From Bacteroidales bacterium (GTDB lineage Bacteria > Bacteroidota > Bacteroidia > Bacteroidales > UBA4181), in NCBI GenBank assembly GCA_031549585.1, contig JAVBPN010000223.1:1-50705 (forward strand): a DNA stretch of 50,705 nt. The letters run 5' to 3'. The number at the start of each line of letters is the position of its first letter. Positions within the stretch are counted from its first letter, which is position 1. Both the position numbers and the translations under genes were made by a program. The notes beneath the pieces were generated by a model. It saw only the letters and a program-made list of their open reading frames with translations. It was not told where the DNA came from and did no database searches. Shown here in pieces: positions 3,191 to 46,615 of the stretch.

Positions 3191-3611
3191 CCGAATCAAA
3201 TTGTTTTCAAAAACCAGACATGTGCTTGTAACCCAAGATTTTATCCTTCTAACAATATTCACTGAATGCTTAAAAAATCTATCAGAGCTACAAAGAATTG
3301 TTTTCCAATCATTACCACTATGCAAAAGTATGCTTCTTTGCTCACCAATCCAAGCAAATAATGCTAATTATTTGTATTCAAATATCATGCCGCCTTACTG
3401 TCAAAAATGTTTGAAACGTTTTGATTTTGAAAACAATATGCATTAAGGCTTGTTTAAAAGAATCGATGAATGATTTTTATGTGATTTGTGAAATATTCTG
3501 AAAATCAACATCATTCATTTGCAATATTCTTATTTATTGGTAATTTTATGATGAACAAACAGATCATTTTATGTGTTTCAACCACGTAATAAATTCAATC
3601 TTTCATGCAAG

Positions 3612-4058
3612 ATGAATAGGAATCCAAACGACAGGGATTACACCAACGGAGAAATAACGGTTCATTGGCGGCCGGCAGAATGTATCCACGATACGACTTG
3701 TTTTGTAAAGTTGCGTTCTGTCTTTAATCCGGGTAGACGCCCGTGGGTGGATATGTTTGGCGCTACAACAGAACAAATTATCGATATTGTAGACCAATGT
3801 CCGACCAATGCATTGACATACAGTTGGAATAAAGATGTTGATTCCGACCAAAAAAGATTAAACCAAAATGAGAATAAATTATCCATCAAAGTATTAAGAA
3901 ATGGTCCATTGGTTTGCAAAGGTGATTTCATATTATCCGACCAGGAAGGAAAAGTGTTTTCAACTCAATCGTCAGTTACTTTATGTCGTTGCGCTTATTC
4001 AAGAAGACAACCATATTGCGACGGACGGCACAAAATGATGGGATTTTCAGATCAATAA
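3612..4058 (+). CDS. Iron-sulfur protein: divergent 4Fe-4S mono-cluster-like N-domain fused to a CDGSH-type domain
   Basis: The listed ORF begins at GTG 3573, and ATG 3612 (MNRNPND) is the more likely start. The N-terminal ITVHWRPAECIHDTTCF...CPTNAL resembles the (4Fe-4S)-binding Fer4_19-type family. The C-terminal CRCAYSRRQPYCDGRH matches the CDGSH cluster-binding motif. Confidence 0.75.
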   Translation: MNRNPNDRDYTNGEITVHWRPAECIHDTTCFVKLRSVFNPGRRPWVDMFGATTEQIIDIVDQCPTNALTYSWNKDVDSDQKRLNQNENKLSIKVLRNGPLVCKGDFILSDQEGKVFSTQSSVTLCRCAYSRRQPYCDGRHKMMGFSDQ

Positions 4059-4344: not shown

Positions 4345-6429
4345 CTATTCCTTCACCATTTTTACTGTTTGTACTTTACCTTGAAGTTCCAACTGAACGA
4401 AATATATCCCTTTGGATAAATCTGTTATGTCTATATAGATTTCAGTTGATGTAACAACAATTGCACGTACTACTTTTCCTGTAATATTGATGATTCGAAT
4501 GGTTGTTGGCGCTTCAATACCAGTTATAGTAACAAATTCGGTTGCCGGATTTGGATAGATTTTTATTACAGAAATATTAAAATCATTGAGAGCCGTTGCT
4601 GACATAATCGTAAAATCAGCACTTATAAACGTAATCGTATAATTGTCGCCGGCTGTCAGAGTTCCTTGTTTAATCTGGTAAGTTCCCACTAATTCGCCAT
4701 CTTCACGAATTAGTGCCCCGTCCAGGGCATCATTTGACAGCAAATCTCCAGAAGTCAGGGTATAAGTTAATAGGGGGTCTGGTTCTCCTTGTTTCTTACT
4801 TTGTCCGAGATTTGCTGTTATTGTCAGTGGCCGAGGAGCGATTTCAACTATATTTGAACGAAGTACACATATGCCCGAAGAAATTGCCACATAGTATGTT
4901 CCTATACTATTAGGCATGTATATGTTGGAGTTAGCCCCATCTATTGTTACGCCAGATTCATACCATTGGTAAGTCAGGTTTTCTCCAGTCGCAACCACCG
5001 ATAATGCGTTTCCGTATATATCATCTTGAGGTTGAGTGATAATAGCTGGATTTATACTAAGGGTGTAATCTAAAGAAACAACCGATCCAGAGTAAAAATT
5101 AAAATCATTATTAACAGTGATGCTTAAGTTATATGTTCCTCCTTGTGTGGGAACTCCCGATAAACTTATGTTTCTAGATAGTTCATCATATTCAAATGAC
5201 ATACCCATAGGCAGGATCCCTGACAAAATGACCTTAATTTCGGGTGTTCCATCAATAATCCAATTTTCATTAAAAGGATTTCCTGCACAAGCGTTGCCAC
5301 TTGTTGCACCATCGATGCTTGGATCGATTCCAACAACTACACGAATATCTGCTAAACGGAATATTTCGTTATCTTCAATTTGACCGGTTTCATTCAAATC
5401 ATAAGCAAATTGTAAGGTATAAAGCCCTGCATCATCCATAGTAATATTGCTTTTTAAATAGTCAGGAGATCCGAATTCACCAACGATAGGCGATCCGTCC
5501 TTATACCACTGCATATTACCTATGCCACTCATTACATCCAACCCTGATTCCAACCGTAACTCGTCACCCGGGGCAAGTAACAAAATAGATGGCATGATGA
5601 TATCTTTTACCACAGATTTTGTGCCTGCCTGCAAAGGAATTTCCACAAGATTCCCATATTGACTAATATCAGGAGCCAGCACAAGCAACGGATGCCCTGC
5701 GGAATATAAACCTGTTCCCATATAAGGCGGTTGAGTTGGCAATTCTACAACTTGAAGAACCAAACACCCAGAAAATGCAGCTGGACCAATCCTTGTAACT
5801 GCGGGTAAAGAAACAGAAGATAACGATACACAACTATGAAAAGCAGTAATTCCAATGTTTGTAACTGCTGGTAGGACAATGGAAGATAGTGATACGCAAT
5901 TCTCAAATGTTCCTCTTCCAATGCTTTCAACTATTGGCAAAGAAACTGCAGATAATAACGTACAATATGAAAATGCCCCCTCTCCAATATCTGTACTTGA
6001 TGGTAAAGAAATTTCAGGTAAAGATGAACACTGCGAAAAGGCAGAAGCTCCAACATTTTCAACTTTTGGTAAGAAAAATGAAATCAATGATTTGCAGGAG
6101 GCAAACGCAGCTTCTCCAATATTAATAATATGTTCAGCATGGATAGATAACAAAGAAGTGTTATACTCATCTTTATGAAACGCTTCTTCAGGAATTTCGG
6201 TATTGCCTGTTTTAAGCACCAAATGGTAAGCTTTTGTGGCATCCCTGAGTATAGACCAATCTGTAGCTTCCAAATCAGATCCACTAACTACCAAAATATC
6301 GTTATCGGTAAAAGCAGTAGGGAATGTGATATCTATATCGCTTGTTTTTATTATAGAATGAGTAGTTTGTGCATGAGAAATAATTGTATAAACCAGTAAA
6401 AAACAACATAAAGTAAATTTTATTTTCAT
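4345..6429 (-). CDS. Surface protein: BspA-type leucine-rich repeats, Ig-like and MBG-like region, T9SS C-terminal sorting domain
   Basis: The listed start at 6435 is TTG. ATG at 6429 gives MKIKFTLCCFLLVYTIISHAQ, a signal peptide. There are repeated ~22-aa LRR units (xSLxSVSLPxVxxIGxxAFxxC). YTITFISADFTI is MBG-like. The tail IKIYPNPATEFVTI...GIYFVQLELQGKVQTVKMVKE is a typical Por/T9SS C-terminal domain. Confidence 0.85.
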   Translation of the reverse strand: MKIKFTLCCFLLVYTIISHAQTTHSIIKTSDIDITFPTAFTDNDILVVSGSDLEATDWSILRDATKAYHLVLKTGNTEIPEEAFHKDEYNTSLLSIHAEHIINIGEAAFASCKSLISFFLPKVENVGASAFSQCSSLPEISLPSSTDIGEGAFSYCTLLSAVSLPIVESIGRGTFENCVSLSSIVLPAVTNIGITAFHSCVSLSSVSLPAVTRIGPAAFSGCLVLQVVELPTQPPYMGTGLYSAGHPLLVLAPDISQYGNLVEIPLQAGTKSVVKDIIMPSILLLAPGDELRLESGLDVMSGIGNMQWYKDGSPIVGEFGSPDYLKSNITMDDAGLYTLQFAYDLNETGQIEDNEIFRLADIRVVVGIDPSIDGATSGNACAGNPFNENWIIDGTPEIKVILSGILPMGMSFEYDELSRNISLSGVPTQGGTYNLSITVNNDFNFYSGSVVSLDYTLSINPAIITQPQDDIYGNALSVVATGENLTYQWYESGVTIDGANSNIYMPNSIGTYYVAISSGICVLRSNIVEIAPRPLTITANLGQSKKQGEPDPLLTYTLTSGDLLSNDALDGALIREDGELVGTYQIKQGTLTAGDNYTITFISADFTIMSATALNDFNISVIKIYPNPATEFVTITGIEAPTTIRIINITGKVVRAIVVTSTEIYIDITDLSKGIYFVQLELQGKVQTVKMVKE

Positions 6430-6667: not shown

Positions 6668-9600
6668 TTATATGGCTTTATTGAGTTTCACATTCTTTTT
6701 CCTTTTAAAGAAAAATAATGGTAAATAAAATAATATCCCTACCAATGAAAACAATAACCCGCCCATCGTTCCAGCGGCAAGAGCAAACCAGAATGGCTCC
6801 CGATGTTCTCCCACAATGAAAGGTGTTAACCCAAGTATGGTAGAAAGAATGGTAAGCATCACGGGTGTTATTTTGCCATGTAATGCTTGCATATAAAGAC
6901 GATGCGACGAGCAGGGAGAATTTTTTCTTAAATTGTTGTAATCATTAATGATATATATGGCCGCATTTACAGTGAGCCCACAAAGCAGAACCAATGCGGC
7001 AAAACCACCTTGGTCAAAGTTCAAGTGGAATAGATAAAATGTGAGAAACAATCCAATAAAAGCAAATGGGACTAAAGCAATGACTGCCAACGGTTGCCAT
7101 AACGACTCAAATAGTATAGCACAAAGCACATACATAACCGCCATGATTAATAAGATAAGCCAATATTGTTTCTTTTCCTTTTGCCAGCCATACCAGCCTA
7201 TTAATTCAGCTTTATAACCCAACGGCAATATCTCATTTGTTTCCTTTACCGTTTGTTCATGCAATTGGTTACCAAATTTGGATGATCCGATGTAGTCATA
7301 ACTTACGATCATGGTATATTGTTGGTTTTCTTTACAAACTTCCTGTTGTTCGGGCTCTTTTACCATTTCACTTATTGATGACAATTTCAGATAACTATCA
7401 CCCAAATGCAATAAGTTGTTGTACAAAATCCAACGGTCTGTTTCGGCCAATTGCTGGGCTCGATATCTAATTTGTTGATATGTCCCGTCAATAACAGCGC
7501 CATATGCTGTTTGTTCGTTGCCAGCAGCATTTCGTATCATGCTAAAATACATAGGTAGAGAAATACCGCTCATGGCTAAACGCCCAATATCCGGTGTGAT
7601 TGTAAATTCACGATTCGTATTTTTCTCATAAGTATATCGACTCATGATATTTACTTCTTTGATACGGGGATTTACCATAAGCCTTTTGCCAATATCCTCT
7701 GCATAACCATATAATTGATCATAATTATATCCGTATAATTGCATTCGGTATGAACCGGAGCTCTCGTATAGCCGGTTTGAAAAAGCATCCCCCAAACCAG
7801 AAACTACCCAATCGGCAGCACCGGAACTAATGCCCCATGTAATCAACCGACTTTTCAAATCATAAGGAAAGTAGCCAAATTCATATTCTTTTTTGAATGT
7901 GATGTTGATGCTGGCGTTTTGCGCATTATATATATTTGTTTGAAAGCGGTCAATCTCTTTAAATCCTGAGAGGTATTGCTCTAAGGCTTCCATAGATTGG
8001 TTCATCTGAACGATGGTTGCTCCCGGAGGCATATAGGCACGAACATGCAATGTGGTACGCGAACGATCCGGATTCCACTGCGATCCTTCATAAACGAACT
8101 GTGCAAAGAGCCGTAAACTGCCTCCTAAAGCTTTGTCAACAACGGGTTTGGCCTTTTCAATATACCATGAACTGCCCAATGTTTTATTGTAAAGTTCCGC
8201 CCAACGACTTTCATCTTCTATTTTATTGGGTAACAGGAATACCGGAAGTCCGAATCCTATAATAAAAATGATCCATGCAATCCAGCGATAACGCCGTATC
8301 CTAAGAAGAACAGATGTATAAATGCGGGATGAAAAGGCTGTACCTCTTCTCTTACCTTTTCTTAAAAGAGACGGAAGAAACCTTTGGGGAATTGTTAATC
8401 TTTTTCTTTTCGATTTTTTAGGTATAGTCGTTTGACTTGGAGAAGGACTTAGTTTGGAATACAATGCCGGAGTGAGAAACCATGCGCTAGCCAAAGATAC
8501 AAATAAGTTGATGATCACTACTATAGCAAAGTCGCTCAAATTAATTTTAATACGATCGTCTAAAAAGAAGACCGCAGAAAGTGAAATAGCAGTAGTAAGT
8601 GTTGCCGCCAGAATAGCCACAAATACATTTTTATTGCCACGGCTTCGCATATGTTCCACCATCACGATGGCATTGTCAATGATTAACCCCAATGAAATAG
8701 TGATACCTGCCAGTGAATAGATATGTATTTCAATACCCAAAAGATAATACATCCCTAAAGCAATACAGATATTGACAATAATGCTTAGTAGAATGATCAT
8801 CAGGAAACGGAACTTACGCGTCACAAGCAGGATAAATAACAAAAGGATGCAAATCGTTGCAATGGTACGTGTATAAATCTTGTCAAGCTCTTCTCCGATA
8901 TATTCTGTGGAATCGTAAGTATTTATTAGTACATAACCTTTAGGTAATGAGGGCTCTAATTCCTTGATCTTCTTTTTTACTTCTTGCGCCAATACAATAT
9001 GGTTGGCTTGTGACGAGGCATACATTACCAAATTGATGGTGCTCATTCCGTTGATGCGGTAATATGACGTAGGCTCTTGTTCTATATGTCTCACAGTAGC
9101 CACATCGCCAAGATGCACTACACGTCCTTCAGATAATTGGATGGGTATTTCTTCGAGGCGAGTACGATGCGCATTGGGATTGCCGATGGTCAGCTGCATC
9201 CATGCTTTGTTCCCTTTATCATCGGTATCTTGCACCATACCCAGCGAAACAATTGCATAGTGGCGGGCAATAGCTTGCTGCAACGCATAAGTTGTCATGC
9301 CAATGGCTTGTAATTGCTCAGCATCGTACTCGACCATCCACTGGTAAGGAGAAGCGCCATATACGGTAATACGATTGACCCCATCAATCTGAGCCAGCAC
9401 AGGCTTAATCTGTTCTTCGGCGTATTGTTGTATCCCGGCAGGATTTGCAGAAGCTTGTAACGAATAAACCAACAATTCAGCTTCTTGTTCGTCGTTGGGA
9501 CGGTTAAGTGATAATATAGGAAAACTAACGCCTTCGGGTAATTTCGGATAAAGTTGCCGGACAGCCGATGCGACCTCAAAACGTGCCGCATCCATATCCA

Positions 9601-16523: not shown

Positions 16524-18917
16524 CTATTCTGTTTTAATACTTTTCACCGGATTGACCATAGCCGCCTTGACCGCTTGAAAACCAACCGTAAGCAATGTTA
16601 ATATGACAACGATAACAATTGCTGCAACAAACATCCACCATCCGAGCGAAATACGATAGGCAAAGCTTTCCAGGTAACGGCTACCTACCCACCATGCTAT
16701 GGGAACAGCAATCAGTAAGGCAACACCTAACAATTTGATGTAACTGCCGGTAAATAAATTAACAATCTGAGGTATACTAGCGCCCAATACCTTGCGAACG
16801 CCGATCTCTTTGGTACGTTGCTCTGCCATAAAAGCTGTCAATCCAAATACACCAAGACAAGCTACCAAGATGGCCAGTATCGAAAAACAAACCGCTACAT
16901 GACTGGTACGCCGTTCCGCATCATATGCATTTTGTATTTGCACGTCAGGAAAACTGACTTCAAATAATTCATTGGGATAATATTTTTTGAATACCGTTTC
17001 ATAAGTTTTGAGTTGTTCCGATATATCTCCTTCTTTTACCCGAACGATCAGGAAAGGCTTTGACATGCGCATACTGTTATGAAACCCGACAGGAGTAATG
17101 GGGCGATGCAAACTCTCTACATTGAAGTTTTCTACCACACCACATACGTACACAGGATCGCCCCAACCAAGATTCGCCATTACTCTTTTCCCGACAGCTT
17201 CTTCGGGGGTTAACTCCAAATATTCCACTGCTTTCCGGTTGAGCACTATTTGTACAATTGAATCCCCCGCTGCTTGTTCGGCCAATGGTTTTCCGGCAAT
17301 AAATTTCAATTCCAACAATTCCGTCAAATGGGAATCAGCAGCAGTCGACCATAATCCTGAACCATTCCTATCTTCAGTATTTTTCTGTAAAACTACCTGA
17401 TTGTCTTCACCACGTACCGGAAAACCTTGCGACCGGGAAATCATCACGACCGAACTTTGCGCCTTATATTCATTTTCCAGGCTTTCAAAATTTGTATTCT
17501 CTGGGAATGCGTTCAATGAAATTCCCATTAAATGATGCGGGTTATAACCAATGTCTTTACTGTTGACATACCGGATCTGGGTTTGAACGACAATCACCCA
17601 TACAATCAGAATCATGGCAACAGCAAATTGGCCTACTGTTAATACCTTTCGTACCATGGCATGTTTTCCTCTGCCAGAAAATGAGCTTTGGCGAATTGCC
17701 AACAAAGGTGGGAATCCGGACAGATAAACAGCTGGATAAGAAGCTGCAATTAGTGTGGTTATCAACCATATCAAGGTTATACCTAACAAGAAGGCTGGAT
17801 GAAATATCAAACTAAAGTTTAGTTGTTCACCCAGTAGGCTGTTGAAAACAGGCAGCAAAGCCAATGATAATAAAAATGCGATGACAAAAGAAACAAATGT
17901 TAATAAGCCGGTTTCCACATATAGCCGGACAATTAACCCTCCGCGCTTGGCACCCAATGTTTTGCTTACGCCAATCTCTTTAAAACGTTTTTGTGCACGA
18001 GCAGTTGATAAATTCATATAGTTAACACAGGCCACCAATAAAATGATCGTAGCCAGCAGGGACAACATGTTTACTTTTCCTACATCACTCGGTGCATGGG
18101 TATAGGTTGACCGAAAGTTTGAAGAATGCAAATGGATGTCATCCAAACGTTGCAATGAAGGACGAAAAAAACTCTCTTGTTTGACTGCGGCATCCATCAC
18201 CTTTATCATTTGGCTTTCCACCATAGCAGCATCCGCATGATCAGCTAACAAGCAAAATGTTTCAAATACAACATTTCCCCAAATGATATACCCACTCAAC
18301 CAAGGAATAGGTGAAGATTCAAATTGTCCGATCATCTCATACGAGGCAAAAGAACTGTTCTCAGGAAAATCCTTGTATACAGCACTCACTTCTAACTGTT
18401 TCTGGTTGTCAATGATCAATGGTTCTCCCACTGGGTTTTGGTTACCAAAAAACCTTTTAGCTACTCTTTCAGATATGGCTACAGTATTTGGCCGAGACAA
18501 AGCCCCTTCTGCCGAACCTTGAATAAACGGAGTATCAAACAAACGGAAAAAATCTTTATCTGCCCAACAAAAATGACTGATTTTGAAAGGCCTATCACCC
18601 GCTTTCACTACATGGGTGTGCACATAAGTTCTCACCGTTGTTTCCACATCCGGGATGGCTTCCTGCATGGCTGGGCCAACAGCATTAGCCGTAGTACAGA
18701 GCGTTTCACCAACCTTTATTTTTGTCAACAACGAATTAATCCGGTAAATATTTTTATGTTCCTTGAATTGCTGATCAAACGAACGTTCGTTGTATACGAG
18801 CAGACAGATCAATAACACAACTGCCAATCCAATCGAAAGGCTCAAAATATTAATGATGGGAAACGTACCCCGCTTGGTCAGGTTACGCCACGAAATGTTG
18901 AGAAAAAATCGGTACAT
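16524..18917 (-). CDS. ABC-transporter permease, double FtsX / MacB-like (subfamily I)
   Basis: 797 aa with an ATG start. The N-terminus is MYRFFLNISWRNLTKRG followed by TM1. Two FtsX signature loops are present (NLSTARAQKRFKEIGVSKTLGAKR and EQRTKEIGVRKVLGAS), each preceded by a large extracytoplasmic domain. The C-terminus is NPVKSIKTE. Confidence 0.9.
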   Translation of the reverse strand: MYRFFLNISWRNLTKRGTFPIINILSLSIGLAVVLLICLLVYNERSFDQQFKEHKNIYRINSLLTKIKVGETLCTTANAVGPAMQEAIPDVETTVRTYVHTHVVKAGDRPFKISHFCWADKDFFRLFDTPFIQGSAEGALSRPNTVAISERVAKRFFGNQNPVGEPLIIDNQKQLEVSAVYKDFPENSSFASYEMIGQFESSPIPWLSGYIIWGNVVFETFCLLADHADAAMVESQMIKVMDAAVKQESFFRPSLQRLDDIHLHSSNFRSTYTHAPSDVGKVNMLSLLATIILLVACVNYMNLSTARAQKRFKEIGVSKTLGAKRGGLIVRLYVETGLLTFVSFVIAFLLSLALLPVFNSLLGEQLNFSLIFHPAFLLGITLIWLITTLIAASYPAVYLSGFPPLLAIRQSSFSGRGKHAMVRKVLTVGQFAVAMILIVWVIVVQTQIRYVNSKDIGYNPHHLMGISLNAFPENTNFESLENEYKAQSSVVMISRSQGFPVRGEDNQVVLQKNTEDRNGSGLWSTAADSHLTELLELKFIAGKPLAEQAAGDSIVQIVLNRKAVEYLELTPEEAVGKRVMANLGWGDPVYVCGVVENFNVESLHRPITPVGFHNSMRMSKPFLIVRVKEGDISEQLKTYETVFKKYYPNELFEVSFPDVQIQNAYDAERRTSHVAVCFSILAILVACLGVFGLTAFMAEQRTKEIGVRKVLGASIPQIVNLFTGSYIKLLGVALLIAVPIAWWVGSRYLESFAYRISLGWWMFVAAIVIVVILTLLTVGFQAVKAAMVNPVKSIKTE

Positions 18918-23885: not shown

Positions 23886-24053
23886 GACCGTAAGACATGT
23901 AAGATGGTAAGACCGTAAGAGGTTGGGATGCTAACGGGGTCTACTATATATTTTGGTTGATTCAACATATGATCTATGATTGTATTTATTTGGCAAAAGG
24001 CAAATTCTTTCATTTTCTTACGGTCTTACGTGTCTTGCGATCTTACGGTCTTC
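23886..24053. repeat. Inverted-repeat intergenic cassette, copy A (L arm 23886-23922, core, R arm 24017-24053)
   Basis: L arm is GACCGTAAGACATGTAAGATGGTAAGACCGTAAGAGG. R arm is CTTACGGTCTTACGTGTCTTGCGATCTTACGGTCTTC. The R arm ends 2 nt before the stop of 24056..26407. The L arm lies 33 nt from the start of 21475..23853. Confidence 0.95.
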
Positions 24054-24055
24054 TT

Positions 24056-28876: not shown

Positions 28877-28929
28877 GACTTTTTTATTTACTTGACTTTG
28901 TATAAAAACAATGAGTGATCTTTTAGATA

Positions 28930-29096
28930 GACCGTAAGACATGTAAGATGGTAAGACCGTAAGAGGTTGCGGCATTTACATGCATTGACGCTATATTTTG
29001 TTTGTTCGACATACGATCTATGATTGCATTCATTTGATAAAAATTAAATTTTCTCATTTTCTTACGGTCTTACGTGTCTTGCGATCTTACGGTCTT
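28930..29096. repeat. Inverted-repeat intergenic cassette, copy B (L arm 28930-28966, R arm 29060-29096)
   Basis: Both arms are identical to copy A. The core is homologous: …CTATATTTTGTTTGTTCGACATACGATCTATGATTG…. Confidence 0.95.
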
Positions 29097-29099
29097 CTT

Positions 29100-31824: not shown

Positions 31825-31911
31825 GAAGACCGTAAGACATGTAAAATAGTAAGACCGTAAGAGATTGTTGTTTTCTTACGGTCTTACGTGTCTTGCGATC
31901 TTACGGTCTTC
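31825..31911. repeat. Core-less hairpin form of the cassette, copy C (arms separated by an 11-nt loop)
   Basis: Sequence: GAAGACCGTAAGA-CATGTAAAATAG-TAAGACCGTAAGAG / attgttgtttt / CTTACGGTCTTA-CGTGTCTTGCGA-TCTTACGGTCTTC. It lies immediately 3' of the stop of 31914..34340. Confidence 0.9.
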
Positions 31912-31913
31912 TT

Positions 31914-36718: not shown

Positions 36719-36769
36719 AATTTATGTGTTTTAATAGTGTTTCTATGATGATGAGTAATCTTTTAGATA

Positions 36770-37042
36770 GACCGTAAGACATGTAAGATGGTAAGACCGT
36801 AAGAGGTTGGGATGCTAACGGAATTGACTATATATTTGTGTTTATCCGGCATCTGGTTTATGATTGTATTTATTTGACAAGATCAAATTCTTTCATTTTT
36901 CTTACGGTCTTACGTGTCTTGCGATCTTACGGTCTTTTTTATTTTGTTGATTCAACATACGATCTATGATTGTATTTATTTGACAAGATCAAATTCTTTT
37001 ATTTTTCCTACGGTCTTACGTGTCTTGCGATCTTACGGTCTT
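36770..37042. repeat. Cassette copy D with a duplicated distal core and R arm (L 36770-36806; R1 36901-36936; R2 37007-37042)
   Basis: The ~106-bp segment ending in R1 is repeated directly after it. The core piece TGATTGTATTTATTTGACAAGATCAAATTCTTT occurs twice. R2 has one mismatch (CCTACGG). Confidence 0.9.
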
Positions 37043-37043
37043 T

Positions 37044-39637: not shown

Positions 39638-39717
39638 GAAGATCGTAAGACCATAAGACACGTAAGACCGTAAGATGCTGTCGTTTCCTTACGATCTTAC
39701 CATTTACACGTCTCGAC
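39638..39717. repeat. Degenerate core-less hairpin, copy E, with arm centres in the opposite arrangement to copy C
   Basis: Sequence: GAAGATCGTAAGA-CCATAAGACACG-TAAGACCGTAAGA / tgctgtcgtttc / CTTACGATCTTAC-CATTTACACGTCTCGAC. The first arm matches the reverse complement of the R arm (34/38 by hand). The second arm matches the reverse complement of the L arm. Confidence 0.75.
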
Positions 39718-40095
39718 TTTTGAGATAGCCTCTTTTTAAAACAATTTTTTGATACTATTATGAAAAATAAAATATACTTTGTTTATAAACTACTGCAGTT
39801 TGTAAACTCAATAGTTTATCCAGAATTCATATTATTAATAAATAATGTAAATCAAAAGGCGAACTTATTGTTACATACTCTATAATTCCGAAAATTCATA
39901 CAACCGGCATATAACTCCTATGATTCATACCTAATTAATCGTCCTTATATCTATAAACATGTGAATTCTTCGGATTCTTATCCTAAGCTTACGTCAAGTG
40001 ATAAATTTTATATACTCATCACTCATCGTTTATAACTCATCACTATTTATTTGCTTTTTTGTTGATGATTATTAAAAAAAATCAGAATTTTATTT

Positions 40096-40103
40096 TATTT
40101 TTG
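40096..40103 (+). promoter_or_regulatory. Possible Bacteroidetes -7 box upstream of 40157..40633
   Basis: TATTTTTG matches TAnnTTTG, 54 nt upstream of the ATG. No well-spaced -33 TTTG was found. Confidence 0.3.
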
Positions 40104-40156
40104 CTTCGCCTGTTGCATACAGGATAACATTATTATTCATTTAAAAAATTAACATT

Positions 40157-40633
40157 ATGGAAAACAGACATTCTCAGGCTGTCCCCGAAGACATCATCAA
40201 CCAGGTGAAAAGCCGCCTGTCGGAAGCAAAAAAACTTCTTGAACCTTATTGCCCGACGCTTACCGTAGAGCAGCGCAAGTCACTTCCCAAAATGAGCGAC
40301 GGAACCCTTGCATTCGGCGAAAAATCGCTAGAACATGCCATCAACCATCCCGAATTCCTGCCTTCGCACATCAGCTTGGATGATTGGAAGATCGACATGG
40401 CCGATGTGAATAACCTCAAGCAGGTGATGGTACTGGTTGGCGATATCAACCAAATGGTGGACGATACCCGCATGACAGCCGGTAATGAAGCCTATTTTGC
40501 TGGTCGCGGCTATTATCACAATGTGCAACGAGCATCTGGCGACGGCGTTCAGGGTGCCTTACCTATTCAAAAAGACCTGGCTACCCAGTTTGCAAACCGC
40601 AGGCCTTTGTCGGCCAACAAAAAAGCGGAGTAA
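40157..40633 (+). CDS. Conserved hypothetical protein (no domain I can name)
   Basis: 158 aa with an ATG start. It is the only plus-strand gene in the right 35 kb. It has non-repetitive, coding-like composition and is followed by a good intrinsic-terminator hairpin. The sequence resembles a helical Bacteroidetes hypothetical family (…LTVEQRKSLPKMSDGTLAF…DDTRMTAGNEAYF…), recalled from memory only. Confidence 0.55.
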   Translation: MENRHSQAVPEDIINQVKSRLSEAKKLLEPYCPTLTVEQRKSLPKMSDGTLAFGEKSLEHAINHPEFLPSHISLDDWKIDMADVNNLKQVMVLVGDINQMVDDTRMTAGNEAYFAGRGYYHNVQRASGDGVQGALPIQKDLATQFANRRPLSANKKAE

Positions 40634-40657
40634 GTCCGGAATTTGACCAACAAGTAC

Positions 40658-40692
40658 AAGCGGGGAACTATGTTTTCCGCTTTTGCTTTTTT
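40658..40692 (+). terminator. Intrinsic terminator candidate for 40157..40633
   Basis: AAGCGGGGAA-ctatg-TTTTCCGCTT gives a 10-bp stem including two G-U pairs. It is followed by TTGCTTTTTT and begins 25 nt after the stop codon. Confidence 0.6.
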
Positions 40693-40942
40693 CCGGGAAG
40701 ACATACCCCGGAGGTGGGCTGTCAAAAATTCATATATTGATAAAAATACGTTCGTCCCATTTTTCATATCCATCGGTGGTGAGTATGTTCGGCGGCATTT
40801 GTAATGCCGTCGCTCAACATTGTCGAACCTTTAGCTCGCCGCAGGCAATTTAAAATTCGACGAAGATAAAAAGCGGCAATACAACTTAGCAAAGCGATCT
40901 CACCGTAAGGTAATTGCCGCTTAGCGAAGTGCGGTACAGAGA

Positions 40943-41189
40943 GACATACCCCGGAGGTATGTTGACATACCTTTTTGTTATGTAGACATCCCACCATAGC
41001 ATGTCTACATGACTCCAAACTATGTTGACATACCTTTTTTGCTACATCGACATCATACCATACCATCTCGACATGGCTCCGAACTATGTTGACATACCTT
41101 TTTGCTATGTCGACATCATATCATACCATCTTGACATAGCTCTGAACCATGTTGACATACCTTTTTGCCGTGTCGAGATACCTTATTGG
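40943..41189. repeat. Phased 21-bp direct-repeat array (12 GACAT-type cores), also readable as ~3.6 units of 63-64 bp from 40959
   Basis: GACAT cores start at 40943, 40964, 40985, 41006 (TACAT), 41027, 41049, 41070, 41091, 41112, 41133, 41154 and 41175 (GAGAT). Spacing is 21 bp, with one 22-bp step. The motif context is ATGT(T/C)GACAT. The 63-64-bp units start at 40959, 41022, 41086 and 41149. Confidence 0.9.
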
Positions 41190-41202
41190 ATATTATTCAA
41201 TA

Positions 41203-41415
41203 GACCGTAAGACATGTAAGATGGTAAGATCGTAAGAGGTTGTGATACTTACATGTATTGATGATATATTTTGTTTATTCAATATATAATCTATAATTGT
41301 ATTTGTTTGGTAAAATCAAACTTCTTCTTTTTCTTACGGTCTTACGTGTCTTACGGTCTTACGGTCTTCTTTCATTTTCTTACGGTCTTACGTGTCTTGC
41401 GATCTTACGGTCTTC
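41203..41415. repeat. Cassette copy F with an extra variant R arm (L 41203-41239; R' 41333-41369; R 41379-41415)
   Basis: The L arm has 1 mismatch. R' is CTTACGGTCTTACGTGTCTTACGGTCTTACGGTCTTC, in which the CTTGCGAT unit is replaced by CTTACGGT. R is canonical and abuts the stop of 41416..43782. Confidence 0.9.
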
Positions 41416-43782
41416 TCATTCCGTTTTGATACTATTCACCGGGTTGCTACTTGCCACGCGCCAATTCTGGAACGTCACCGTACCGGCCGTAATTGCGGCT
41501 ATAACGACAAAAGCCAATAAATAAACCCACCAGTATACCGGTGTTTTGTATGCGAAATTCTCCAACCAGCGATTAACGGCATACCATGCAAGCGGGACTG
41601 CCACAACAAAGCAGATTACCAATATCTTAAAATACGCCTTGTTGAACATGACGATGATGCCAATGACAGATGCCCCCAGCACTTTGCGGATGCCGATTTC
41701 TTTCCGGCGGCATTCGCTGTCGAACACCACTAATCCGAATACACCGACAACGGCTATGAAGATGGCAATGAGGCTAAACAATGAAATCAATGAACTCAGC
41801 GAAGATTCCTTTTCATACAACCGTTGCAATACTTCATCAAAAAAACGGACTTCAAACGGGTAATTCGCATCAAACCAGGCAAGTGTTGAGCGAATATGCG
41901 ACATCCCCGCATGCAGATTAGTTCCTGCCTTTAGTTTAATATAAGCAAAATTAGGTTGTCGTCCCCAGTTCTCGGTTCCAAATACATAAAATGCCATCGG
42001 TTCAACCGCCATGCGGAAAGAGGCAAATTTAATATCGGGCATAAATCCGATAATTTCACCGTCATTACCACCGCCACCTCCTATTGATGTGTTCAGCTCC
42101 AGGCCGAATTGCTCCCGTGCAGCTTCATTAAATATGTACGCGCCATGTTGCGTATGGGTATCTTCTTGCCTGAAATCGCGGCCCTCAGTAATCTTGATGT
42201 CCATCACTTTCAGAAACGAGTAATGCACGGGAAAGACCTGGTACATAATATCATCACCTTTATATTCCTTCCCCCAACTCATATACGCGTCGGAACTCGA
42301 CAACAGGAATTGTCCGTAAGTAACATCCTCAACCCCCGAATACGATTTCAATTGATCGGTAAATGCTTCGCGACTTTTTTGTATCTGACCGATATCGGCA
42401 GTAATTAAAGCGGCTTTGTCGTAACCCAAAGACGAATTTTGCATGAACCGGTTTTGCAGGTACATGAAGGATGCACCGATAATCAGCGCAAAAGAAGCGA
42501 TAAACTGGATGCCGATCAATGTATTGCGCAAACTTTTCCCTTTGGGCGACAGCCCGAAGTTTCCCTTCAATACCAACGCCGGGGCAAATGAAGTGATGTA
42601 ACGCGCCGGATATAAGCCCGCAAACAAACCGGTGAGCAATGCCACCAAAGCCGTTCCACCGGCAATCAACAGATGAGCCGCAAGCGACAAATCGGCGTCT
42701 GTCAACTTTGCCAACGGACTGCTATTGAACAACAAAACGAACAAAATAGCGACAAGATATGACAGTAGGCTGATGGCAACCGCTTCGAAAACAAGCGCAA
42801 AACGCAAGATGCTTTGCCTTGCTCCCAATACGCGTTGCGTGTTGATATTTTTGATACGCATGGGCGTCAACGCCGTGCTGAAATTGGTAAAATTGATAGC
42901 CGCTATGGCGATTAGCACAATGGCAATGGCAAACAAAATCATCAATGTCTGCCGGCTTGCTTTGGGTACGAAATCAAATTGTACATCCGTTACGAAATGA
43001 AGTTCCGGAAGAGCTGTAAGCCGCAAGCTGACACCCGATTCCTCCCAATTGAAATTTTTACCAAAAGATGATTCAGGGAGATTGAAATTCCGCTTGAAGT
43101 TATCGAATAACAAAGGCGCCTGAGATGCGTCGTTGACCCGGATATAGGTAAGGTAATTAAAATTCCCCCAGTTATCCTTATTTTCCTTTTCAGGGATAGG
43201 AGCATATATGCTATTATTGACGATGGTATTTGCAGGAAAATCGCGATATACCGCTCCTACCGTTTGGCTTCCCCGGTCGCTGACAAGCTGTTTGCCCACA
43301 GCCGACTCTTTTCCGAATATTTTGTGCGCCAGACTCAGCGGGAGAATTACCTTTTCGGGCGTTGTAAGGGCATCCTCCGTTCCTTCCACAAAATCAAATG
43401 TAAACACATCGGCAAATCCGGGTGATACCGACATTCCTTTTTCCTTGTAGAAATTCCGCACACCATCCTTCTCCACATGGAAAAAAACATCTTCATTCGC
43501 GGGGTTGCTGAACGCACCACTGACAATATAAGGCGACGATTCAAAGAAACGCTCGGCAATGGGACGGCTAAGAACTGCCCATATATTATCTTTTTGAATT
43601 AATTCCACACGAAAAATCTGATCGTGGCCTTGATGGAATTTGTCAAAACCGTTATCATAATCCAGTTGGATCATGATGACCATAAATGCTGCAAAAGCAA
43701 CCGAAAGGCCTAATATATTCAGGATTGTCGCCATCTTAAAACGGCGGATGACACTTAAAAGGTTACGCAAAACAGGTTTCAT
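41416..43782 (-). CDS. ABC-transporter permease, double FtsX / MacB-like (subfamily IV, most divergent)
   Basis: 788 aa with an ATG start (MKPVLRNLLSVIRRFKMATILNILGLSVAF). FtsX-type loops: TQRVLGARQ and ECRRKEIGIRKVLGAS. The C-terminus is NPVNSIKTE. It appears GC-richer than its neighbours by eye. Confidence 0.88.
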   Translation of the reverse strand: MKPVLRNLLSVIRRFKMATILNILGLSVAFAAFMVIMIQLDYDNGFDKFHQGHDQIFRVELIQKDNIWAVLSRPIAERFFESSPYIVSGAFSNPANEDVFFHVEKDGVRNFYKEKGMSVSPGFADVFTFDFVEGTEDALTTPEKVILPLSLAHKIFGKESAVGKQLVSDRGSQTVGAVYRDFPANTIVNNSIYAPIPEKENKDNWGNFNYLTYIRVNDASQAPLLFDNFKRNFNLPESSFGKNFNWEESGVSLRLTALPELHFVTDVQFDFVPKASRQTLMILFAIAIVLIAIAAINFTNFSTALTPMRIKNINTQRVLGARQSILRFALVFEAVAISLLSYLVAILFVLLFNSSPLAKLTDADLSLAAHLLIAGGTALVALLTGLFAGLYPARYITSFAPALVLKGNFGLSPKGKSLRNTLIGIQFIASFALIIGASFMYLQNRFMQNSSLGYDKAALITADIGQIQKSREAFTDQLKSYSGVEDVTYGQFLLSSSDAYMSWGKEYKGDDIMYQVFPVHYSFLKVMDIKITEGRDFRQEDTHTQHGAYIFNEAAREQFGLELNTSIGGGGGNDGEIIGFMPDIKFASFRMAVEPMAFYVFGTENWGRQPNFAYIKLKAGTNLHAGMSHIRSTLAWFDANYPFEVRFFDEVLQRLYEKESSLSSLISLFSLIAIFIAVVGVFGLVVFDSECRRKEIGIRKVLGASVIGIIVMFNKAYFKILVICFVVAVPLAWYAVNRWLENFAYKTPVYWWVYLLAFVVIAAITAGTVTFQNWRVASSNPVNSIKTE

Positions 43783-43861
43783 GACATTATTTTATTTACT
43801 TGACTTTTGAATAACAGATGATGTAACAAAGAGCGATGAATTATGAGTGATCTTTTAGATA

Positions 43862-44033
43862 GACCGTAAGACATGTAAGATGGTAAGACCGTAAGAGGTT
43901 GCGACACTTACATGTATTGGCGCTATATTTTGTTTATTCGACGCCATATCTAGTCTATGGTTACATCTATTTGACAAAAATTAAATTTTATCATTTTCTT
44001 ACGGTCTTACGTGTCTTGCGATCTTACGGTCTT
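43862..44033. repeat. Inverted-repeat intergenic cassette, copy G (L 43862-43898; R 43998-44033)
   Basis: Arms are identical to copy A and the core is homologous. It lies between subfamily IV and subfamily III genes. Confidence 0.95.
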
Positions 44034-44035
44034 TC

Positions 44036-46408: not shown

Positions 46409-46447
46409 AGGGCAATGTGTGTTAAGTGATGAGTAATCTTTTAGATA

Positions 46448-46613
46448 GACCGTAAGACATGTAAGATGGTAAGACCGTAAGAGGTCGCGCACTTACATGT
46501 ATTGATGCTATATTTGGTTTATTCGACATTTAATCTATGATTGTACTTATTTGGTAAAATCGAACTCTTTCATTTTTCTTACGGTCTTACGTGTCTTGCG
46601 ATTTTACGGTCTT
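46448..46613. repeat. Inverted-repeat intergenic cassette, copy H (L 46448-46484; R 46578-46613)
   Basis: The L arm is identical to copy A. The R arm has one mismatch (GATTTTACGG). The core contains an exact TATATTTG at 46509-46516 on the plus strand. Confidence 0.95.
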
Positions 46614-46615
46614 TT

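Follow-up and report, generated by a model that had tools for sequence, protein, structure and literature searches.

A 21-bp repeat array in helical register beside the gene of an unannotated protein family in Bacteroidales DNA

The repeat array and the adjoining gene

The DNA analysed here is a stretch of 50,705 nt from a Bacteroidales bacterium (NCBI GenBank assembly GCA_031549585.1, contig JAVBPN010000223.1, positions 1 to 50,705 of the forward strand), referred to below as the window; its sequence resembles Bacteroidales DNA. At positions 40943–41189 the window carries an array of 12 repeat units with a 21-bp period, one 22-bp step and a 63/64-bp super-period formed by three unit types. 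The array is located between the 3' end of an open reading frame (ORF) for a 158-aa protein (40157–40633, plus strand) and an inverted-repeat-flanked element (41202–41415), which lies just after a permease gene (41416–43782). The 158-aa protein is predicted to be all-alpha and belongs to an unannotated family, and its gene is the conserved partner of arrays of this kind. Comparison loci retrieved in this work are labelled with L-numbers (L007–L038).

Cores of the GACAT type start at 40943, 40964, 40985, 41006 (as TACAT), 41027, 41049, 41070, 41091, 41112, 41133, 41154 and 41175 (as GAGAT). The initial annotation of this DNA had placed twelve cores at exactly these positions, and the sequence reads as claimed at all of them. 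The only step other than 21 bp is the one from 41027 to 41049, which measures 22 bp because a T6 run replaces T5. The period was confirmed with Tandem Repeats Finder, which reported positions 40958–41176 with a period of 63, 3.5 copies, 85% matches and a score of 303, along with an extra row of period 21. The unit was best parsed as a dyad of about 16 bp (GsTATGTC-GACATAsC, with arms GsTATGTY) and a 5-nt linker. The linker has three variants (TTTTT, TCYGA/CCGGA and ATCAT) and, therefore, there are three unit types. T5/T6 linkers occupy 40972–40976, 41035–41040, 41099–41103 and 41162–41166, and the vector strength of the T-tracts in the window array was 0.99 at 21 bp and 0.97 at 10.5 bp.

The first unit (40944–40962; ACATACC-CCGGA-GGTATGT) consists of 7-bp arms around a CCGGA linker and represents a conserved 5' boundary of the array, the same in L024 (3256–3274) and almost the same in L023. 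At the other end, the motif TTCAATAGAC (41196–41205) forms the 3' boundary, and its counterpart TTCAAAGAAC ends the arrays of L023, L024, L030 and L007. Two adjacent cores, each non-palindromic alone, form the perfect 10-bp inverted repeat ATGTAGACAT-N11-ATGTCTACAT (40980–41010). Both this repeat and the three unit types had been described previously and were found to be present. Comparable inverted repeats of 10–15 bp were detected near the array start in L023, L025, L029 and L033, as well as within the array of L013, and those of L025 and L033 show a compensatory difference (T..A versus C..G).

A search for ATGTYGACAT with up to one mismatch yielded 23 matches in the window, 19 of them within 40959–41158, compared to 10.3 scattered matches in shuffled sequences. 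Lag-21 self-identity reached 0.55 at the array against a window median of 0.27, and this was the sole site in 50.7 kb exceeding the mean by more than four standard deviations. The array had been described as GC-richer DNA, but its GC content is 41.3% vs. 40.3% for the window, and the GC-rich part is the neighbouring gene for the 158-aa protein (50%).

One explanation of the register is that the repeats encode a heptad-repeat protein, 21 bp being equal to seven codons. A strict 21-nt register would also be expected of coding DNA, one frame is open throughout in some arrays (L024, L025 and L027; a 128-aa ORF in L037), and a frame of L034 is stop-free after its first codon and reads LVHLFGE. However, every frame of the window array contains stops, and its longest ORF (62 aa) had no homologue in 5.8 billion proteins and no match in Pfam. 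The open frame of L034 has no start codon, and both the open frame and its strand vary between loci. The L023 and L024 arrays can be aligned to the window array one unit at a time, yet differ from it by indels of 1, 9 and 20 nt, and L023 has three 22-bp steps. Conservation is confined to contiguous T-run columns and has no 3-nt periodicity. On the evidence of frames, indels, periodicity and homologues, we consider heptad-repeat coding effectively refuted, and the earlier description of the array as apparently non-coding is borne out. Overall, the data support a non-coding, helically phased array under constraint.

The adjoining gene has its own predicted expression signals. The box TATTTTTG (40096–40103, plus strand), 61 nt upstream of the ATG, fits TAnnTTTG, the consensus -7 promoter box of Bacteroidetes. 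A small hairpin, CCTGTTGCATACAGG, follows it in the 5' untranslated region. A TAnnTTTG box at -61 to -69 was found in six of the eight close loci (the window, L023, L024, L025, L027 and L033). Between the stop codon and the array, a hairpin followed by a T-run (40658–40692, plus strand) resembles an intrinsic terminator, and equivalents were present in L023, L024, L025, L027, L030, L034 and L037. These predicted signals show the gene as a separate, apparently monocistronic transcription unit. A candidate Bacteroidetes-type promoter entering the array from its 3' flank (GTTCTTTGAA, minus strand) was rejected, having neither the TA nor a TTTG at -33.

Between the terminator and the array, the window contains a 243-bp insertion (40716–40958) associated with a 17-nt direct repeat AGACATACCCCGGAGGT at 40699–40715 and 40942–40958. 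The insertion is absent from the orthologous loci L023 and L024 and looks like either a small insertion with target duplication or a slipped duplication.

Recurrence of the gene and array at other loci

The 158-aa protein has about ten close homologues (57–89% identity). All come from assemblies of Bacteroidales or Prevotellaceae, and Pfam recognises no domain in any of them. Each of those on a usable contig was examined, together with four distant members (27–37% identity). All eight close loci with enough downstream DNA carry a 21-bp array 0–330 nt past the stop codon, and in each close locus examined the array lies on the strand of the gene and directly past it. Three of the four distant loci also carry an array, namely those of Belliella (L034) and Leadbettera (L037) as well as L038. 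Altogether, a 21-bp-period array follows the family gene at a distance of 0–330 nt in 11 of 12 loci, over an identity range of 27–89% and across Bacteroidales, Cytophagia and Leadbettera, with 7–17 units per array. The initial annotation saw no partner gene in the window and was wrong in this, the partner being the neighbouring 158-aa ORF; it was nevertheless well aimed in pointing at the protein next to the array, as the co-occurrence demonstrates.

Among the distant loci, that of Belliella baltica, whose family protein is Belba_2728, contains 12 units in strict register (5620–5871) and that of Leadbettera contains 17 (5546–5902), the latter array being missed by Tandem Repeats Finder because its units have diverged. 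L038 has about 10 degenerate units. In the Cyclobacterium marinum locus (L036), a 540-bp non-coding region (8100–8640) located 2.6 kb from the family gene contains 29 A/T tracts phased at 10.5 bp (R = 0.71) and not at 21 bp. This region ends with a GGGGGTACTTCTGAAGTACCCC hairpin, like the hairpin after the Belliella array. Hairpins resembling repetitive extragenic palindromic (REP) sequences, of the ACCTGTCAGGT or AAACCTGGGAGGTTT type, also adjoin arrays or the family gene in L007 (7540–7610), L034 (5556–5592) and L036 (5660–5860), which belong to only distantly related Bacteroidota.

A lag-21 scan of 330 kb detected only the family arrays, an orphan array in L013, the displaced region of L036 and one coding repeat; about 150 kb of unrelated control loci gave no signal. 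The coding repeat (L023, 7871–8170) lies inside a PDDEXK_2 (Rpn-like) gene and was discarded as unrelated. The orphan array (L013, 4484–4735; period 21 × 11.6, super-period 64) begins at the stop codon of a gene for a 1035-aa RND efflux pump. The metagenome-assembled genome that contains it also has the gene-linked array L023. In L007, an array is located at the contig end, downstream of an FtsX gene, and the contig does not extend to the side on which the family gene would be expected. An exact-pattern scan of genome contigs returned 14 loci, 12 of which were single chance matches (about 17 expected) and only L007 and L013 were arrays. A metagenome scan with ACATACCTTTTTGCTATGT returned eight loci, all of them single chance matches.

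The module occurs in several genomic settings. FtsX permease genes flank it on both sides in the window, L023, L024, L027 and L030, and the same probably holds for L033, whose flanking genes are cut by the contig ends; in L029, it lies between susD and uvrB. The flanking genes are ordinary chromosomal ones (carAB, uvrB, thrS, FtsX permeases). The next gene was readable in 11 loci, and in 10 of these the array lies between convergent genes. In L025 (4596–10366, Prevotellaceae), the module is located beside a phage-tail-like cluster with matches to PTL_trimer, Collar, Glyco_hydro_19 and SH3_3. The family was not detected in phage, plasmid and viral sets either by tblastn against INPHARED and PLSDB or with two family profiles against IMG/VR, and the module is thus chromosomal rather than carried on mobile replicons.

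Array cores change from locus to locus while the T-rich linker persists. The core is ATGTCGACAT in the window, L023 and L024; ATGCRYGCAT in L027 and L033; ATGCKCGCAT or ATCCGCGCAT in L029; (C)TGCGCACA in L025; and ACAGGATGACCTC in L030–L032. Further cores among the loci include AGGATGACCT and GTTCACC..GGTGAAC. Judged by this recurrence, the gene and the array form a conserved two-part chromosomal module, the array being its putative cis-acting half.

L030 (2392–2690), L031 and L032 encode an identical family protein and are nearly identical over the 300 nt before the array, and they differ in the order and number of array units. All three assemblies derive from short-read metagenomes, and some of the differences may be artefacts. 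Many family members are found on contigs of only 1–2 kb because assemblies break at the array.

In the window itself, 13 tandem paralogous genes for MacB-like permeases of about 785 aa (MacB_PCD/FtsX) occupy the minus strand at 16524–50699, an unusually long array of paralogues. Most of these genes are followed by an inverted-repeat-flanked element, in which arms of about 36 bp made of TCTTACGG/AGACCGTA octamers surround about 95 bp. Such elements lie at 23899–24055, 28929–29099, 36769–37043 (two tandem copies), 43861–44035 and 46447–46615 in addition to the one next to the repeat array, and forms without the inner segment are present at 31826–31913 and 39639–39715. The inner segment contains TATATTTTG, which is close to the Bacteroidetes -7 box and directed away from the downstream gene. 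The element is possibly an invertible promoter, or else it forms a long 3' hairpin; it also flanks the arrays of L027, L033 and L023. The gene for the 158-aa protein had been regarded as the only one on the plus strand, but there is a second plus-strand ORF at 3573–4058 with Fer4_19 and zf-CDGSH domains.

Comparison with a paralogous intergenic region showed that about 1.5 kb (approximately 39720–41200, comprising promoter, gene, terminator and array) is extra relative to the other permease spacers. The GC content of the gene (50%) differs from that of the window (40%) and of its own upstream 450 bp (26%). The GC contrast and the extra DNA suggest that the module of about 1.5 kb was acquired as a block.

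Conserved geometry and the level at which the array acts

The sequences of the cores differ even between loci whose proteins are 77% identical, and the geometry is retained. In L037, 17 units extend over 357 bp in a 21-nt register without a single indel, with a lag-21 identity of 0.49 and T-runs of 4 to 6 nt. Vector strength for the centres of T/A tracts was measured in 12 arrays, gene-linked or orphan, and ranged from 0.86 to 1.00 at 21 bp and from 0.77 to 1.00 at 10.5 bp. In all 12, A/T tracts of 4 nt or more thus recur in step with the helical repeat of 10.5 bp. Helically phased A-tracts bend DNA, and curvature of the arrays can be predicted on this basis. A family-wide motif, sCTTTTTGs, alternates with a linker of the YTCYGA(A/G) type, and both occur in L038 and Belliella as well as in the window. 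In 11 of the 12 arrays, the T-rich strand coincides with the gene strand. The Belliella array is inverted relative to the gene: A5 lies on the gene strand, and the units fit sCTTTTTGs when flipped. The orientation of the array relative to the gene is, consequently, not fixed. Across the loci compared, it is the geometry and not the sequence that is conserved, and the spacing is under selection.

These properties bear on whether the array acts as DNA or as RNA. An RNA-level element would be a string of hairpins with U-rich linkers, transcribed by read-through or from its own promoter. It could serve as a multiple terminator or roadblock in the convergent region, or it could yield a repeat RNA that the adjacent protein binds or processes, in loose analogy to a type III toxin-antitoxin system. 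Several observations agree with this. In the window, L023, L024, L033, L013 and L034, predicted folding is far stronger than in shuffled sequences (z from -6 to -10), and the units, each a 16-nt palindrome with U5, resemble small intrinsic terminators. The location between convergent genes in 10 of the 11 readable loci and the coincidence of T-rich strand and gene strand in nearly all arrays would also fit. The inverted repeats of 10–15 bp and the compensatory difference between L025 and L033 would suit an RNA or a cruciform equally, and template-switch correction of quasi-palindromes can yield such inverted repeats without selection.

On the other hand, the arrays of L030 and L037 showed no significant predicted folding (z from 0.1 to -1.9) and kept the phasing. 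In most close loci, predicted folding of the minus strand equals or exceeds that of the gene strand, and a G:U asymmetry test gave no consistent bias toward the gene strand. Strict maintenance of a 21-nt register through sequence divergence is not something that RNA hairpins need. A search of Rfam gave only sub-threshold chance matches to eukaryotic microRNA models, and the protein has no RNase or toxin signature. The terminator precedes the array, the Belliella array is inverted, and the order of gene and array is the reverse of that in ToxIN. We therefore regard an RNA-level element as unlikely, although it is the strongest of the competing explanations. The fixed register and tracts, the inverted array of Belliella, the intervening terminator and the hairpins that are not universal favour a function of the double helix over that of a co-transcribed RNA.

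A second possibility is a structural DNA element, i.e., curved DNA or a protein roadblock, that works independently of the 158-aa protein and is read by general host factors such as gyrase, RNA polymerase or nucleoid proteins. Gene and array would then stay together simply by moving or being inherited jointly. The phasing of A/T tracts is the one feature that all arrays have in common, the L013 array persists without the gene, and the tract-phased region of L036 lies away from it; the acidic nature of the protein, which has no nucleic-acid-binding fold, is in line with this as well. However, the linkage extends over 27–89% identity and about seven contexts despite turnover of the array, which is hard to explain without a functional tie, and the position of the array is fixed relative to the 3' end of the gene. 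A structural element of this kind is, in our estimation, quite unlikely.

Neutral or selfish behaviour was also considered, namely a minisatellite that expands by slippage or unequal exchange at a harmless convergent spot, its inverted repeats being perfected by template switching. The variable order and number of units among L030, L031 and L032, which encode the same protein, are what such a process would leave, as are cores homogenised within an array and different between loci. Contigs also often break at the array (L007, L028, L031 and L032). A minisatellite, however, would not recur behind one protein family across phyla, would not hold an indel-free 21-nt register at 49% unit identity and would not keep its tracts helically phased, which makes this explanation very unlikely.

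Known repeat systems and the putative nucleoprotein module

A profile search with the 158-aa protein retrieved 1,990 clusters at 50% identity with E ≤ 1e-3 and 771 with E ≤ 1e-10, nearly all of 150–165 aa. Named members occur in Belliella, Cyclobacterium, Algoriphagus, Marinoscillum, Sunxiuqinia, Tannerella and the spirochaete Leadbettera azotonutricia, and all are annotated as hypothetical proteins. Searches of Pfam, NCBIfam, PHROGs and PADLOC gave no match, and a profile search of PDB sequences found nothing relevant. The AlphaFold2 model built from a 74-sequence alignment had a predicted local distance difference test score of 92 and a predicted template modelling score of 0.72 and was all-alpha. 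Helices were predicted at residues 11–28, 37–42, 48–63 and 134–142, with a single 55-residue helix at 74–128 and a disordered tail following the last of them. Foldseek identified no fold match (best E = 2.0 against PDB and, with an earlier model, 0.33 against BFVD). In the model, the long helix suggests that the protein may oligomerise. Conserved basic residues cluster in the segment ER..L.KMGDK...FV.K, and the tail often reads RFPGR(K/P)(K/R); that the conserved segment forms a surface contacting the minor groove or phosphates is speculation. No annotation, domain family or publication was found for the pairing of this gene with an array, and literature searches on phased or 21-bp repeats in Bacteroidetes turned up nothing relevant.

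The array was compared with known classes of repeats. Iterons are the closest in size: the R6K gamma origin has seven 22-bp iterons, and P1 incA has nine repeats downstream of repA. Like these, the array consists of direct repeats of about 20 bp at two-turn spacing beside a small gene, and its 12 units at 21 bp fall within the iteron pattern of 17–22-bp repeats in 7–12 copies. It differs in being without a replicon of its own and in the heterogeneity of unit sequences within one array. No Rep-family (winged-helix) initiator adjoins it according to Pfam, NCBIfam, PDB and Foldseek searches, and the chromosomal flanks and the PLSDB, INPHARED and IMG/VR results do not indicate residence on a plasmid or phage. 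Neither a DnaA-box cluster nor an AT-rich unwinding element was noticed next to the array, although no systematic search for them was made.

Among partition centromeres, sopC of the F plasmid lies directly after sopB and is built of 12 tandem 43-bp repeats, each containing a short dyad. The present array is similar in its roughly 12 tandem dyad units, integral helical turns and position directly 3' of the gene for a candidate binder, the repeats lying next to that gene in 11 of 12 loci. In contrast to sopC, its unit is 21 bp rather than 43 bp, no ParA-type ATPase is present, and the module is chromosomal and absent from plasmid collections. The partner here is an acidic all-alpha protein of 158 aa without a ParB or helix-turn-helix (HTH) match. 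At no locus did the Pfam families of the neighbouring genes include ParA, ParM or TubZ, and neither sequence searches nor Foldseek revealed a ParB/HTH, ribbon-helix-helix or winged-helix fold in the partner.

In ParR-parC of pSK41 and R1, 20-bp or 11-bp repeats are wrapped into a superhelix, and the ARG boxes of ArgR are 18-bp palindromes with a centre-to-centre spacing of 21 bp. The array shares with them dimer-type sites on one face that allow cooperative oligomerisation or wrapping, and the 21-bp centre-to-centre spacing matches. However, those sites, which are bound by proteins of ribbon-helix-helix or winged-helix fold, are located upstream of or inside the regulated promoters. The present array, in contrast, comes after a terminator, and no fold of either type was seen in its partner.

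The resemblance to iterons, sopC and parC in repeat size, number and two-turn spacing, the place of the array downstream of a small gene, as with incA after repA and sopC after sopB, and the phage-tail-like genes beside L025 could indicate an iteron origin, a copy-control array or the partition centromere of an integrated plasmid or phage-like element. Against this, no gene for Rep, ParA/ParM/TubZ, ParB or an integrase lies beside the module at any locus, the flanks are ordinary chromosomal genes, and the family is absent from the plasmid, phage and viral collections. An identity as any of these is extremely unlikely. The initial annotation had proposed iterons, partition-centromere-like sites or cooperative regulator-binding arrays, and membership in these classes was not supported, as the partner has no Rep, Par or regulator fold and the searches of plasmid, phage and viral sequences did not reveal the family.

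Other classes share fewer features with the array. Bacterial interspersed mosaic elements (BIMEs) and REP-RAYT systems also have tandem palindromic units, a few alternating short linkers, a location at gene 3' ends or in convergent regions and a small associated gene. The array, in contrast, is a single locus in 50.7 kb and not dispersed, and its protein has no Y1/HUH (Y1_Tnp) domain; BIMEs do not characteristically keep a strict 21-bp period. Type III toxin-antitoxin systems (ToxIN) likewise combine a small protein gene with a fast-evolving tandem array and a terminator between them. Here, the array follows the gene, its unit is 21 nt instead of 34–45 nt, it is inverted in Belliella, and the protein gave no ToxN-like or defence match in PADLOC and Pfam. 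Kinetoplast-type bent DNA resembles the arrays, in which T5/A5 tracts recur in phase every 21 bp or at multiples of 10.5 bp and vector strength is as high as 1.00. The tracts of the array differ in lying within dyad repeats tied to one protein family, and their curvature is predicted only. We did not file the array under iterons, centromeres, REP/BIME-RAYT, ToxIN or Rfam families, as the defining features of these groups were tested and did not apply to it.

The explanation that we tentatively favour is that the array is a double-stranded, helically phased and intrinsically curved platform that nucleates cooperative protein assembly, with the product of the adjacent gene as its likeliest binder; that the array acts as DNA and that this protein binds it are both inferred. 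A stand-alone gene with its own predicted promoter box and terminator is followed, just past the terminator, by the array. The 21-bp period corresponds to two helical turns, so that all units face one side of the helix. The phased T5/A5 linkers should curve the DNA in one plane, and the dyad-symmetric arms would provide repeated candidate binding sites. A protein could then oligomerise cooperatively along this one-faced platform or wrap it. The product of the adjacent gene is the most plausible candidate, with putative contacts through conserved R40, K45 and K56 and the basic C-terminal tail, and with the 55-residue helix possibly mediating oligomerisation. Such a platform would be independent of co-transcription because a terminator intervenes and because the Belliella array is inverted. 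Given the convergent intergenic setting, a role as an insulator or roadblock is conceivable.

Several observations weigh against a platform bound by the family protein. No DNA-binding domain or fold was recognisable in the protein by sequence or Foldseek, and its folded part is acidic (median net charge -5, isoelectric point 5.5), with only the last 15 or so residues basic. The Cyclobacterium marinum locus has the family gene and no adjoining array, and no family gene or pseudogene remnant was found within 8 kb of the orphan array L013. The strong hairpin potential of many arrays, together with the compensatory changes, also suits an RNA or single-stranded role. Finally, the sample comprises 12 of about 2,000 family clusters in about seven independent genomic contexts, and several of the close loci are orthologous.

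It is quite conceivable, though short of probable, that the gene-repeat module is widespread, extending over roughly 2,000 protein clusters mainly in Bacteroidota and also in a termite-gut spirochaete, and represents a new chromosomal nucleoprotein or ribonucleoprotein device made of a protein with a novel fold and a phased array. Possible roles include those of an insulator, a roadblock or a site that organises the chromosome, as well as addiction and defence functions. Should this protein turn out not to bind the array, the two-turn register kept through sequence turnover is still an unusually clean natural case of selection on DNA geometry. The module offers the unannotated family a testable hypothesis in the cultured Belliella baltica DSM 15883 and Leadbettera azotonutricia. 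Binding of the array by its neighbouring protein, if confirmed, would mean a new DNA-binding fold and a new class of phased nucleoprotein site, one that would be common in Bacteroidota chromosomes and invisible to current annotation.

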